This document shows, piece by piece, positions 2,578 to 19,688 of a stretch of DNA of 64,000 nucleotides. Position 1 is the first letter of the stretch; each line of letters starts with the position of its first letter. Source of the stretch: a virus; the IMG/VR virus record IMGVR_UViG_3300045988_026316. One strand, 5' to 3'. The notes beneath the pieces were generated by a model. It had not been told where the DNA came from, made no database searches, and worked only from the letters and a program-made list of their open reading frames with translations. A program made the translations under genes and the position numbers.

Positions 2578-3135
2578 TTATTCTGCAGAAGGACCTTGCA
2601 TGTTAGAAGGACCTTGCATCATGATAGGCCTATCCTGTTCTGAAACAACAGGTTCACTGTCGTTAGATGTATCAGCATCAGAATCTACAGCAGTCTGTGC
2701 ATTATCAGAAGATCCGTAACCACCATCAGCTCGATCAGATTCTGAAAGACTATCAGACTCAACAAACTCTACATCAGGAACAGGCAAGATCACCAGCTGA
2801 GCAAATTTATCATCAACCTTGTATACGGCAGGAACAACATCTGTAGTTGCTATAAATTTACCAAGTATTTCACCACGATAACCTGAATCAATCACGCCAC
2901 AACTATTCGTAAGACGTAATGACTTCTTTGCAATAGATGATCTTGGCATCAGCTGAGCAAAGTATCCTTCAGGAATCTCTAATGCAAGATCTGTATGATA
3001 TACGATCACCAACTGACCACACTCATTCAACTCTGTCGTTATACCCGTAGTAGTTAGATCAAAACCAGCATCTGTCTTATGTGCTTTTGAAGGCATTACA
3101 GCCTTATGAGAAAGTTTCTTGAATTTAATTTCCAT
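2578..3135 (-). CDS. dut: dUTP diphosphatase (dUTPase)
   Basis: Carries the motifs AGFDL, PRSS, GVIDSGYRGE and GGYGSS in the order typical of trimeric dUTPases. It has an acidic/Ser-rich C-terminal extension. Confidence 0.9.
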   Translation of the reverse strand: MEIKFKKLSHKAVMPSKAHKTDAGFDLTTTGITTELNECGQLVIVYHTDLALEIPEGYFAQLMPRSSIAKKSLRLTNSCGVIDSGYRGEILGKFIATTDVVPAVYKVDDKFAQLVILPVPDVEFVESDSLSESDRADGGYGSSDNAQTAVDSDADTSNDSEPVVSEQDRPIMMQGPSNMQGPSAE

Positions 3136-3187
3136 CTTATTATATTTTAGTAGCCCTACCAGGAGTCAAACCCGGACCAGGAGGGTT

Positions 3188-4166
3188 CATAAATCGACTG
3201 TTGCATCCAGTCCTAAGACCAGTCTTCTCGTTCAGTCTGTCACGCTGTTTTCACTTGCGCCTCGTCAACATTGTTTTCCGAGTCAATTAGAGAAGATTCT
3301 AATAGCGGATTATTTATTATCCCGCTACCATCCAATATTTTCCAATGACTGTTCAACCAAAAATTATCCTTATTGTACATGATCGTACGAGTACATGTTT
3401 TAATTCGTTTTGTTTTAACTTCGTTGTTGAGAATGAGTTGCTTTGCGGTCTCTATCAAAGAACCATATCGTGCAATTTCGTTCCAGTTCTCATCGTATCG
3501 AATCACATATTTTTGATTAGATTTTTTCAAACCGCTTTCGCTAACAATCCTGTTTACAACATGTCTACGAACACCAAGTGCTGAAGAAACTTGTTTTATA
3601 TTACGACGTTTTTGATACTCAGCTTCAACTAAATTTCTAAGATCGTCTGTAATTTCATATTCAGAATCATTTCTTTGTTGATTTCTACTACCATAAGTAG
3701 TTGTCTGACTATGACAATTCGGACATAGAAACCGAAGATTTTCTATACGATTATCGTTGTTGATTCCGTTTATATGATCAAGTTCTAAACTTAACGTACG
3801 ACCTTGCCATTCAACACATCCGCAAATCGCACATCGATATGGGATTAGATTATTTTTTATGACATATCGTCTTAAAACAGAACGAGTATGTTTACAATTA
3901 GGTTTTAATATATCCGAAGCATTTACTTTGTGTAAAGTACCATATTTCGTAATTGGAGATTTACCTTTAAATATACTTCCGTCTAAATTTAAATCAGACA
4001 TTCTTTGTTTAACTTTAGCAAACCCCCAAGAATTACCTTTTACACTATAACCTAATTTAAATAACACTTCAGATATAGTCGAACTATTCTTGAGCAGCTC
4101 AACAAACTGTTCGTCTGAGAGCTTATATATTTTATTTTCCATATATTCAATTATTCATTGGATAAA
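3188..4166 (-). mobile_element. group-I-like intron with HNH homing-endonuclease ORF inside the tRNA anticodon loop
   Basis: The 979-nt insert begins after an exon U (4167) and ends in G (3188). The R-like box GTGACAGACTGAAC (3243..3230) contains GACTG, which can pair with CAGTC (3200..3196) as P7. I found no convincing P1 guide sequence, and the P3-P6 elements would have to overlap the ORF. Confidence 0.45.
3240..4142 (-). CDS. HNH homing endonuclease
   Basis: The segment CAICGC...LELDHINGINNDNRIENLRFLCPNCH is a classic HNH/zinc-knuckle core. It is flanked by N- and C-terminal helix-turn-helix-like DNA-binding segments. There is no in-frame TAG, and it ends in TGA. Confidence 0.85.
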   Translation of the reverse strand: MENKIYKLSDEQFVELLKNSSTISEVLFKLGYSVKGNSWGFAKVKQRMSDLNLDGSIFKGKSPITKYGTLHKVNASDILKPNCKHTRSVLRRYVIKNNLIPYRCAICGCVEWQGRTLSLELDHINGINNDNRIENLRFLCPNCHSQTTTYGSRNQQRNDSEYEITDDLRNLVEAEYQKRRNIKQVSSALGVRRHVVNRIVSESGLKKSNQKYVIRYDENWNEIARYGSLIETAKQLILNNEVKTKRIKTCTRTIMYNKDNFWLNSHWKILDGSGIINNPLLESSLIDSENNVDEAQVKTA

Positions 4167-4233
4167 AGAGCCTCTTGTGCTAATCGCTACACCATAGGGC
4201 AGTATTAACCTCTTTCTTAAGGAGGTTAATTGA

Positions 4234-4452
4234 TTAAACAAATAATGAAATCACTCCTATTTGAAGTGCTTGTCCGATTAAACCACCTATTTCTGTAGCA
4301 GCTATATCAAGCCGATCGAACTTACCTCCCCATTGTTTATCTTTAAATTCCATCCCAAACGCTAGACCTGTACTGAATAATATCGTACCAACAAAAGCTG
4401 CAGGAATGGCGTACAACAAATGTTTTGGTCTATTAGATTCTTTTAGCCACAT
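4234..4452 (-). CDS. small membrane protein (two hydrophobic helices)
   Basis: The likely start is ATG 4452, because the track start at 4530 runs across the tRNA-like element. The hydrophobic segments are LLYAIPAAFVGTILFSTGLAFG and IGGLIGQALQIGVISLFV. It ends in TAA. Confidence 0.5.
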   Translation of the reverse strand: MWLKESNRPKHLLYAIPAAFVGTILFSTGLAFGMEFKDKQWGGKFDRLDIAATEIGGLIGQALQIGVISLFV

Positions 4453-4466
4453 ATTGTAGTTTTTTG

Positions 4467-4558
4467 CGCTGGGGGCAGGACTCGAACCTGCTTCCATAAG
4501 GATCCCATCTGGTATTATTCCAGACTTCACTTTGCTCTACCTCATAAGCTACTCCCGC
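4467..4558 (-). tRNA. aberrant type-II tRNA-like element (possible pseudo-tRNA)
   Basis: It has T arm GCAGG-TTCGAGT-CCTGC, D arm GCTT-ATGAGGTA-GAGC and a long variable arm. However, the acceptor GCGGGAG/CCCCAGC has 2 mismatches, 9 extra nt precede the anticodon stem, and the loop AATAATA has A33/T37. Confidence 0.35.
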
Positions 4559-7121: not shown

Positions 7122-7192
7122 ATATGTAAAATCTGTTGATCGTATGATACAAGCATAGAAGAAGTTATTAAGAATATATAACAACGTTGATT

Positions 7193-7999
7193 ATGAAGAT
7201 GATTAAACCACATGTTGAATTATTTACTCAGCAGTACGACAAACTTGGAATATACGAAATGGTTGAGCTTGCTGGTAGAACTTCGTACAAATCAGAGAAG
7301 AATATGTCTTTTGATGAGAATGGACGTTCTACAACAGCTGAAGCATTCACCAACAAACTCATATCGTATAATCACGGTGCCGCATTAGAACATGCTACGA
7401 TCTATTTGACGGTACCTAAAACCGAGAAGTTGTACAAAGGGATGGTTAAGATGTATCAACAAAACAAGTATTCTAGAGTTATCGAGTTTGATGGAAATGC
7501 ATACATAACAACAAACTATCGAGTGATTATCGAGAATGGTTGGACTTACGATCTCAAATATCTCACAGAGCCTCATAAACTTCATGTAAAACGTTATTCA
7601 TTTAGGATTACGTGCAACAGGATTAACTCTCAATCATTCATGAGACATAGGGTATTTTCATTCCTGCAAGAAAGTACAAGGTATGTTACGTATAACGGAG
7701 ATCTTGAATATATCTATCCATCTGACTGGAATACGTATGATGCTGAAACAAAGAAGCTGTTTAAAGATCATATAACAGCATCTGAATCCGTATATAAGAC
7801 CTTGTTATCTAAAGGTTTGAAAGCTGAACGAGCTAGAGATCTTCTCCCTTGTGGAATTAAGACTGAGTTTGTTATGACAGGATTCATAGATGATTGGGAT
7901 AAAATGTTAAAGTTAAGATTAGCTAAAGGAGCTCATCCAGATGCTCAACTAATAGCACATCAAATATCAGATATACTAAACGATGTTATACAGGATTGA
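7193..7999 (+). CDS. thyX: flavin-dependent thymidylate synthase
   Basis: Carries the ThyX signature RHRVFSFLQESTRY (RHRxxSxxxxSxRY). ATG 7193 is preferred over the track TTG at 7187. It ends in TGA. Confidence 0.9.
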   Translation: MKMIKPHVELFTQQYDKLGIYEMVELAGRTSYKSEKNMSFDENGRSTTAEAFTNKLISYNHGAALEHATIYLTVPKTEKLYKGMVKMYQQNKYSRVIEFDGNAYITTNYRVIIENGWTYDLKYLTEPHKLHVKRYSFRITCNRINSQSFMRHRVFSFLQESTRYVTYNGDLEYIYPSDWNTYDAETKKLFKDHITASESVYKTLLSKGLKAERARDLLPCGIKTEFVMTGFIDDWDKMLKLRLAKGAHPDAQLIAHQISDILNDVIQD

Positions 8000-18906: not shown

Positions 18907-19338
18907 TCTATCATCAGATAGTATCTGTAAATAGAACTACAAAGTCCAACTCAAGAGCCTAAGAACCATGAGCGCTTTTGAAATATTAATAACCCGATGT
19001 ATCACTCAATATGACCGCAGATGGATCATGATTGTTTGGAGCCGTAGAAACGTATTTTAAAAGCATAAGAATCGACTTATCACACAGAGCCATGAGCCAA
19101 TGTGGGACGAAAACACTCTAACAGGGGTGGATAAACTACTGTCGTATCAAATGATCGAACATGCAAGAACTATAAGTCTTTAAGGCCCCTACATATGCGT
19201 GTAGGTTCCGTCTTGAAGTGTGTTTTATCAAAGAGAATATAGTTAGCCCAAACAGAATCTTGAATCAGTTTTGGAATCTCTAACTATCGCAGTATTTCGT
19301 AGCGTGCTGCATCCATAGGGAGTTTGGCCATTCTCTAT

Positions 19339-19399
19339 GGAACTATGTGTGGGGATGAGTTAATCATACAAGACGTGGGTTCGAATCCCACTAGGTCCA
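19339..19399 (+). ncRNA. D-arm-less tRNA-like element TLE3
   Basis: Acceptor GGAACTA/TAGGTCC pairs at 6 of 7 positions. The T arm is GTGGG-TTCGAAT-CCCAC, and there is an internal imperfect hairpin around AGTTAAT. Confidence 0.4.
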
Positions 19400-19626
19400 C
19401 GAATTCCATAAGTTTTTTAATTGATGTTTTTTAATTATTGTTTATTATCGTAACTCATAGGGTAACGGTTCGTGAGAATAGTTACTCATTTTATGGGCCT
19501 AACTGGTTTTGATTGTATGAGGAAGTAAATCCGTTAACTGCGCATTAAACATCAACTGGCGATTATAATATCGTAGATTACACTCACATAGCGTAAGTGC
19601 TAATCAGGTTCGACTACCAAAGTGTC

Positions 19627-19673
19627 ATGGGCGAGTAATAGGACTGTATGGGGTTCGATCCCCCACGCCCAAC
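19627..19673 (+). ncRNA. acceptor/T-arm minihelix TLE4
   Basis: Acceptor ATGGGCG/CGCCCAA pairs at 6 of 7 positions. The T arm is TGGGG-TTCGATC-CCCCA, with only a 15-nt connector. It ends 16 nt before ATG 19689. Confidence 0.4.
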
Positions 19674-19688
19674 TAAAACAGAATCAAT

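Follow-up and report, generated by a model that had tools for sequence, protein, structure and literature searches.

A crAss-like phage amber-suppressor tRNA gene with a mobile group I intron, encoding an HNH endonuclease, very probably lodged in its anticodon loop

Group I introns in the anticodon loops of bacterial transfer RNA (tRNA) genes are well established, with a recent cryo-electron microscopy paper on the 205-nt Azoarcus tRNA-Ile intron describing its P1 and P1 extension (PMC13168695), and the Synechocystis tRNA-fMet intron encoding the endonuclease I-Ssp6803I, as cited in a 2014 review (Bonocora and Shub 2001, cited in PMC3984707). According to that review all phage group I introns then known were in protein-coding genes, despite the many phage tRNA genes (PMC3984707), and in crAss-like phages group I introns are described from core protein genes (PMC7886860, PMC12386605). 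The introns in Lak megaphage tRNAs are termed ‘enigmatic’ by their describers, according to whom no intron had been reported from phage tRNAs before (Devoto et al. 2019, PMC6784885). Also pertinent is that some recoded crAss-like genomes are without a detectable suppressor tRNA (PMC7886860, PMC12386605, 10.1101/2021.08.26.457843). The locus considered here, at 3151-4201 on the minus strand of a 64,000-nt stretch (the window) of IMG/VR virus record IMGVR_UViG_3300045988_026316, is that of a gut phage of the crAss-like type (Crassvirales, near Suoliviridae). It is very probably a functional amber-suppressor tRNA(CUA) gene of this phage, invaded between U35 and A36 by a mobile group I intron encoding an HNH endonuclease. 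A preliminary description, made from the letters of the window, had proposed such a splitting of a suppressor gene in its anticodon loop, and the proposal is borne out by an intronless allele, a covarying core, the keeping of pairing across the exons, and a failure to find any other tRNA(CUA) over a genome-equivalent.

The 5′ exon (4167..4201, minus strand; 4201..4167 reads UGCCCUAUGGUGUAGCGAUUAGCACAAGAGGCUCU) comprises the acceptor strand, D arm, anticodon-stem strand AGAGG and loop residues C32-U33-C34-U35. The 3′ exon (3151..3187, minus strand; 3187..3151 reads AACCCUCCUGGUCCGGGUUUGACUCCUGGUAGGGCUA) has A36-A37-C38, the anticodon-stem strand CCUCC, a 4-nt variable loop, the T arm, the acceptor 3′ strand and a discriminator A, with CCA not encoded. 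Both halves are where they had been placed originally, and between them is the intron (3188..4166, minus strand, 979 nt), with UUUAUCC at its 5′ end and AUUUAUG at its 3′ end, the terminal G being at 3188. Joining after U4167 and after G3188, with the 5′ exon ending GGCUCU and the ligated junction being AGAGGCUCU directly followed by AACCCUCC, gives the 72-nt cloverleaf proposed at the outset, which has a 7-nt anticodon loop, U33 and a purine at 37, and which ARAGORN calls as tRNA(cta) whether or not flanks or CCA are included. In the window as it stands, ARAGORN and Rfam report seven ordinary tRNAs and neither reports an uninterrupted tRNA(CUA); the split gene is also missed by ARAGORN in its intron mode (-i0,1200). 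CUA had been held to be the only anticodon that fits a 7-nt loop, which is too strong, as from the sequence alone joins giving UGA, CGA or CUU also yield a 7-nt loop with U33 and A37. The choice of CUA over these is made because of the rule that the exon ends in U and the intron in G, and because of the intronless allele. The rule, part of the same proposal, holds for U4167 and G3188 and for all 19 representative introns that were aligned.

The intronless allele is in a contig of 96,418 bp (L004) that was found by an exact search of viral contigs for the spliced anticodon arm, and in which the T arm and acceptor are also present. At 7167-7239 it has the identical 72-nt tRNA(CUA), uninterrupted, called by ARAGORN and with the same neighbouring genes as in the window, its 5′ and 3′ parts being the same as the two exons. 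In a BLAST comparison with the window, identity is 95.2% up to 4167 and resumes at 3187 with 96.9%, so the breakpoints are exactly those of the proposed join. As neither the first nor the last base of the insert matches those flanking it, the insertion point is unambiguous, between U35 and A36, and the allele fixes the predicted splice junction independently. An assembly artefact is excluded, for alleles with and without the intron both recur in near-identical genomes: it is absent from L004, L073 and L057, and present in the window, L006, L007 and five independent ENA/Logan metagenome assemblies (L065-L069).

Selection on the joined RNA, as distinct from its two parts, can be read from pairing between the exons. 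The anticodon stem, to which each exon contributes one strand, pairs in the standard way in 93 of 95 cells; more than 19 diverged copies have kept pairing between the exons, this stem having many compensatory changes, and the acceptor stems are likewise paired across the exons with compensatory changes. Such maintenance by compensatory change is hard to explain if the joined RNA were not under selection. The use to which a suppressor would be put is also apparent. The claim that the giant virion genes need TAG decoding is upheld by the density of in-frame TAGs in late-region open reading frames (ORFs), three of which, of 2239, 1745 and more than 3494 residues, have 23, 14 and 31 TAGs respectively as sense codons; a 744-residue gene has 13, and the late genes visible in the window have more than 80.

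An intact suppressor tRNA encoded elsewhere, a possibility raised in the preliminary description, was looked for over a genome-equivalent, in which use was made of an intron-bearing contig, 015832, that is 96.7% identical to the window, with the ~34 kb of genome outside the window covered by L071, L154 and L153. In the window plus L071, L154 and L153, tRNA(CUA) is absent by ARAGORN at default and at relaxed thresholds, and no intact tRNA(CUA) is found by a loop-agnostic cloverleaf scan that recovers the L004 and L057 tRNAs and misses that of L073. No second tRNA(CUA) was found, and because the only tRNA(CUA) gene found is split by an intron, the altered genetic code of the phage appears to depend on RNA splicing. 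Two further candidates were rejected as suppressors: ‘tRNA-?(acta)’ at 19309-19400 is part of a tmRNA-like RNA considered below, and a weak tRNA match at 4467-4558 has no assignable CUA anticodon. The latter (minus strand) is an intergenic tRNA-like element, conserved beside the suppressor locus, in which the D and T arms are canonical, the acceptor has two mismatches and the anticodon arm is longer by ~20 nt. It scores 29.4 bits with the Rfam tRNA model (cutoff 29), and ARAGORN gives it as ‘tRNA-???(ggaa)’ in relatives and as Ser(gga) at a relaxed threshold.

What lies between the exons is a predicted group I intron core with support from covariation. The last ~150-180 nt of the intron are far better conserved than the ORF, and an alignment (A1) of 18 distinct cores was used for a group I model of helices P2-P8, with P7 pseudoknotted over P3, having 41 pairs in 7 helices. 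In this model 97.8% of cells form standard pairs, as against 33-48% when the partners are slid by 1-3 columns; there are changes on both sides in 22 of the 41 pairs (109 cells), and in none of 500 shuffles is the observed value attained. Compensatory changes are in 6 of 8 pairs in P2 and 6 of 7 in P3, and also occur in P4, P5, P7 and P8. RNAalifold, blind to the model, predicts the nested helices P2, P3, P4, P5, P6 and P8. The core so delimited by A1 covariation and RNAalifold is at 3195..3328 (minus strand, as are all its helices), with, from A1, P2 formed by 3328-3321 with 3309-3302, P3 by 3296-3290 with 3229-3223, P4 by 3282-3279 with 3264-3261, P5 by 3275-3272 with 3270-3267, P6/P6a by 3260-3257 and 3254-3253 with 3248-3247 and 3245-3242, P7 by 3239 and 3237-3233 with 3200-3195 around a bulge at 3238, and P8 by 3222-3217 with 3212-3207. 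In P7, G3237-C3196 is invariant (18 of 18) and is the predicted guanosine-binding pair; the adjoining bulge is flanked by the covarying 3239-3195, which is C-G in 11 and A-U in 7. The strands GUGACAGACUGAACGAG and GGAUGCAACAGUCGA resemble the classical group I R and S elements. RNAalifold also predicts an extra outer helix, between 3334-3341, in the guide region (UAUUG.AU), and 3199-3206, in J8/7 and the start of P7′ (minus strand). It was not adopted, having no compensatory change and conflicting with P1 and P7, and it might be an inactive conformer or a prediction artefact.

A ribozyme in this position bears on a quite different possibility, that the gene is a split one whose halves are expressed apart and then either ligated in trans or held together non-covalently, as happens in some archaea. 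Though the halves are ~1 kb apart and each has complete helical strands, they and the ORF are co-oriented with a group I ribozyme between them, and there are no bulge-helix-bulge motifs and no complementary leader and trailer sequences. Bacteria are not known to have the archaeal splicing endonuclease, and this possibility is given almost no credence.

For the 5′ splice site, the preliminary description had seen no good P1 guide, but a candidate can be offered. The sequence GGAUG just 5′ of P2 is invariant in all 18 aligned introns, and its GGA (3331..3333, minus strand) is a candidate internal guide sequence that could pair with exon U33-C34-U35, with a G.U at the splice site; UU at 3335..3334, just 5′ of the GGA, can pair with A36-A37 of the 3′ exon as P10. 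What would bring this guide to the splice site is a P1 extension whose 5′ strand (4155..4162, minus strand; UCCAAUGA, intron nt 5-12) pairs with its 3′ strand (3341..3348, minus strand; UCAUUGGA), the latter also coding for the conserved ...SHW... of the HNH protein, and which closes a ~800-nt loop with the ORF inside. An extension is present in every lineage, in that intron nucleotides within the first 5-35 pair with sequence just upstream of the guide; the sequences differ and covary, as with UCCAAUGA/UCAUUGGA of the window and CCAAUAACUA/UAGUUAUUGG of L016, and others likewise. At the other end of the core two subfamilies are distinguishable. In one (L021, L023, L024, L027-L029) there is a P9 hairpin, with covariation of its stem seen by eye (CCG/CGG, CCAC/GUGG, CCUC/GAGG, CCUUU/AAAGG), and the other includes the window.

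The element is by no means peculiar to the window. Relatives of its HNH protein are at 23 loci in viral contigs, and a search of viral contigs with the conserved 3′ core motif gave 28 loci, 10 of them further contigs, with no ORF-less intron copy among the 28 matches. More than 30 contigs of crAss-like phages have it at this position of their tRNA(CUA) genes, in differing tRNA bodies, and nearly all of the contigs are of ~50-160 kb, a size typical of such phages. Wherever both flanks are present the element is 972-1003 nt, follows CUCU, ends in G and is followed by AA(A/C), and its removal restores a tRNA(CUA). Among 185,579 bacterial and archaeal genomes it is present only in a phage contig binned as a Muribaculaceae metagenome-assembled genome, again in tRNA(CUA), two further matches in bacterial genomes being chance matches within coding sequence. 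Its mobility is supported by the presence/absence polymorphism already described, and identity between introns exceeds that between exons in many pairs (e.g. 84% versus 56%), a gap that indicates an element moving between different tRNA(CUA) genes, putatively by homing due to the encoded endonuclease. A deposited complete genome, GenBank PV686213.1 (Bohxovirus sp. ‘endotrachealis’; L064), has this intron in its tRNA(CUA) gene at 1096-2150, where GenBank annotates just a ‘hypothetical protein’; its HNH motif reads CPNCYSQ, and the copy may be decaying or have sequencing errors.

The tRNA bodies into which the element has gone, and others at the same locus, are diverse. In L008 and L010-L015 the spliced exons have the T loop GGCAGCA and a D loop without GG, and all four stems pair; ARAGORN makes no tRNA(CUA) call in these even after in-silico joining, and the suppressor tRNAs of this clade are generally atypical and easily missed. 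At the same locus L057 (4672-4743, minus strand) has a different, intronless tRNA(CUA) body with the stem UCUGU/ACAGA and odd D and T loops, which ARAGORN also misses. In L070 (3029-3605, plus strand) a tRNA of the L057 type is followed by a different, free-standing 153-residue HNH gene and then by a remnant 3′ end of the window-type tRNA (GGGTTTGACTCCTGGTAGGGCTA). The L057 and L070 genomes are 92-96% identical to the window, and their loci suggest that the tRNA at the suppressor locus has been replaced more than once through endonuclease action, possibly with cleavage-resistant variants as a result.

Several features weigh against a functional suppressor gene with a group I intron. The D and T loops of the spliced tRNA are non-canonical (G18-G19 is missing, and position 56 has U in place of C) and it has mismatches A27.C43 and U1.U72, the odd loops and unpaired 1:72 having been remarked on from the start. 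The lack of another suppressor derives from a composite of two near-identical genomes and from detectors that miss some odd tRNAs. The PV686213.1 copy ends in A, not G, and the last His of its HNH motif is Tyr, so some intron copies may be decaying. The Rfam group I model (Intron_gpI, RF00028), which the preliminary description had proposed as a check with Infernal, gives no match at E<=10 with 2900-4500 of the window, with the core at 3170-3350 or with the P9-containing core of L024; though the ORF in L1, the absence of P9 and a divergent periphery may be responsible, this is counted as a failed test. The candidate P1 is just 3 bp with both partners invariant, and so is beyond a covariation test. 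The subfamily of the window is without a P9 hairpin, there being only 7-10 nt from P7′ to the terminal G, and because of this its efficient unaided self-splicing is uncertain.

Some of these points would suit a dead tRNA gene, into which an HNH gene was inserted with destruction of its function, TAG then being decoded by another phage tRNA, a host suppressor or read-through. Free-standing HNH genes are common in phages, with that adjoining the tRNA locus in L070 being a different one, Rfam recognises no group I intron in the insert, and the Bohxovirus copy looks degenerate. However, a dead gene would not account for ~150 nt of the insert having a conserved and covarying group I-type fold, for insertion of every copy (among the 19 representative introns) exactly between the exon U and the intron-terminal G, for cross-exon pairing being kept by compensatory changes in more than 19 diverged copies, or for there being no other tRNA(CUA) over the genome-equivalent searched. 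It is considered very improbable.

The short P1, the absence of P9 in the window subfamily and the overlap of the ORF with the guide sequence and P2-P6 are more pertinent to whether a group I intron at this locus would splice autonomously. Its P9-less core could instead need help, whether from a protein (the HNH protein acting as a maturase, or a host RNA chaperone) or from the tRNA body serving as scaffold. Some intron-encoded endonucleases, for the most part LAGLIDADG ones, do have maturase activity, but no HNH endonuclease is known to act as a maturase. A P1 of 3 bp is also not without parallel, as that of the Azoarcus tRNA-Ile intron (CAU with GUG) is equally short. Dependence on a helper is regarded as unlikely, given that the P9-less form is kept in several different tRNA bodies and that the compact 205-nt Azoarcus tRNA intron self-splices efficiently (PMC13168695). 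The intron of the window is predicted to self-splice.

The encoded protein is specified by an ORF at 3240..4142 (minus strand) of 300 codons, with an ATG start, a TGA stop and no in-frame TAG. The presence of an HNH gene between the tRNA halves, noted at first sight, is confirmed by matches to Pfam HNH PF01844 (E=1.9e-4, 21.9 bits, cutoff 21.4) and to PHROG 10822 ‘HNH endonuclease’ (E=4e-44), the HNH motif with its CxxC zinc finger reading CAICGC...LDHINGINNDNRIENLRFLCPNCH. In-frame TAGs number 0 in the 19 HNH ORFs, so the endonuclease is independent of the tRNA whose gene it interrupts. The ORF is in the P1 loop and overlaps the ribozyme, with its last ~33 codons, in the window subfamily, traversing P2-P6 to the TGA in J6/7; in the P9-containing subfamily it ends (TAA) at the first bases of P2. 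Since ORF and ribozyme core overlap, the earlier caveat that only ~75 nt of the insert is non-coding is no obstacle.

That overlap is the basis for an idea in which the intron serves as a timer. Ribosomes translating the HNH ORF across the guide and P2-P6 would block ribozyme folding, and so delay maturation of the suppressor, and with it expression of the TAG-rich late genes, until HNH translation stops. The ORF does cross both the guide sequence and the P1-extension 3′ strand and, in the subfamily of the window, P2-P6 as well; it is without TAG; the intron-split tRNA(CUA) is the only decoder found; and in phage T4 translation into a group I core inhibits splicing, as cited in a review (PMC3984707). 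Nevertheless, near-identical phages (L004, L073, L057) have the same tRNA(CUA) intron-free, and the intron is hence dispensable; in the P9-containing subfamily the ORF ends before P2; and intron and exon identities are decoupled, as expected of a selfish mobile element. A role for splicing in timing or gating the code switch, which the preliminary description had entertained, is weakened by the presence or absence of the intron among near-identical phages, and the timer is thought rather improbable. The intron is best read as a selfish mobile element that is tolerated because it is spliced, and not as one needed as a regulator.

For the preferred reading, an invaded and functional suppressor gene, the following course of events is envisaged. 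The locus would be transcribed as a ~1.05-kb precursor, on which the HNH ORF would be read in the standard code, hence with no need for the suppressor. The long-range helix 4162-4155/3348-3341 would close the ~800-nt ORF loop, bringing the 5′ splice site beside the guide GGA (3333-3331) paired to exon UCU, and the P2-P8 core would bind guanosine at the invariant P7 G-C pair. Two transesterifications would then release the intron, out after its terminal G (3188), and rejoin C34-U35 to A36, after which host enzymes would trim the ends and add CCA. The tRNA would be charged, probably with Gln, and decode in-frame UAGs of the late virion genes. The endonuclease would meanwhile cut intronless tRNA(CUA) alleles of co-infecting relatives, with repair copying the intron in. 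A bolder extension, to which little probability is attached, has the intron as the sole route to the TAG decoder, with endonuclease translation and suppressor maturation being mutually exclusive and giving a splicing-based delay of the code switch, and with the endonuclease also destroying the decoder gene of intronless co-infecting competitors, a weapon on a rival's genetic code.

The amino acid inserted at TAG merits separate comment. The tRNA(CUA) shares U1, the GUGU D stem, the 4-nt variable loop and A73 with the phage tRNA-Gln(UUG), and the Gln-like features listed for it are U1, a weak 1:72, U35, A73 and the 4-nt variable loop. The Gln-like features pointed to initially (U1, weak 1:72, 4-nt variable loop) are genuine and are shared by other members of the intron-bearing tRNA(CUA) family, in which the combination of U1 and a weak 1:72 pair recurs. 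Together with the literature (PMC7886860) they suggest that the tRNA is probably charged with Gln. Protein homologues are of no help here. They have Q at 141 of 236 (60%) aligned TAG sites, but the argument is circular because the database proteins were themselves translated with TAG as Gln: for P0001 and P0020, genes in L057 and L058 whose DNA was checked, every Q at TAG-aligned sites is itself a TAG codon. GenBank phage homologues of the late proteins (25-32% identity) are too distant to assign an amino acid.

Two other features of the window and its relatives deserve mention. One is an intergenic RNA of ~400 nt at 19310-19687 (plus strand), which is 93% identical even in L058, whose one compared protein (P0020) is ~55% identical, and which has compensatory changes in its tRNA-like helices. 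ARAGORN gives it as a permuted transfer-messenger RNA (tmRNA) with the tag GDYNIVDYTHIA*; with Rfam, tmRNA_permuted (RF04321) scores 39.9 bits, below the cutoff of 47 (E=1.3e-6), and beta_tmRNA is a partial match (E=1e-9). This phage, with its reassigned stop codon, probably encodes a two-piece tmRNA-like RNA here. The other concerns the gene downstream of a terminase-like gene of 688 codons, which in some relatives specifies an 828-residue portal protein and in L065 a 1177-residue product with intein (Hom_end_hint) matches (L065 19731-20558 versus L068 16407-17231); in part of the genomes of the clade an intein is apparently encoded within the portal gene.

In wider terms, an RNA-splicing step would here lie upstream of a change of genetic code, and a suppressor gene split by a 1-kb intron escapes standard tRNA finders. 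At least part of the ‘missing suppressor’ of recoded crAss-like phages may be intron-split genes. Possible tools include a compact ribozyme of ~150 nt plus a short leader, and an endonuclease putatively recognising amber-suppressor anticodon regions. A full-text literature search turned up no account of a phage suppressor tRNA with a group I or HNH intron, in keeping with the original impression that the arrangement was undescribed, and within the searchable literature no group I intron in a phage tRNA gene precedes this one.

Comparison with known systems brings out what is shared and what is not. The bacterial anticodon-loop group I introns (Azoarcus tRNA-Ile(CAU), cyanobacterial/plastid tRNA-Leu(UAA), cyanobacterial tRNA-fMet) likewise have an intron of the self-splicing type in the anticodon loop, a very compact core and an anticodon stem kept in the exons. 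Here, however, the host gene is a phage stop-codon suppressor and not a cellular sense tRNA, insertion is between 35 and 36, there is a ~900-nt ORF in the P1 loop, and the window subfamily is P9-less and unrecognised by the Rfam group I model. I-Ssp6803I of Synechocystis is of the PD-(D/E)XK type, not HNH, and its intron is in an initiator tRNA of a cyanobacterial chromosome whereas the present one interrupts the suppressor tRNA of a phage. Phage group I introns with HNH endonucleases (SPO1, Twort, Bastille, T-even) are alike in being mobile introns with an HNH gene in lytic phages and in their presence/absence polymorphism, but the earlier ones were in protein-coding genes (PMC3984707) and this one is in a tRNA gene. 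The Lak megaphage introns are, like it, in tRNA genes of TAG-recoding phages and were detected by comparing alleles with and without the insert; in the portion of that report drawn on here they are unclassified and credited with neither a group I fold nor an endonuclease gene, a tRNA may itself be encoded in one of them, and those named are in tRNA-Tyr(GTA) and a putative tRNA-Thr(TGT), not in a suppressor (PMC6784885). In the recoded crAss-like phages, as presumably here, a phage tRNA(CUA) supports TAG reassignment concentrated in late genes (Yutin et al. 2021, PMC7886860; Borges et al. 10.1101/2021.08.26.457843). Their suppressor genes are uninterrupted (PMC7886860; 10.1101/2021.08.26.457843), whereas that of the phage considered here is split by an intron.

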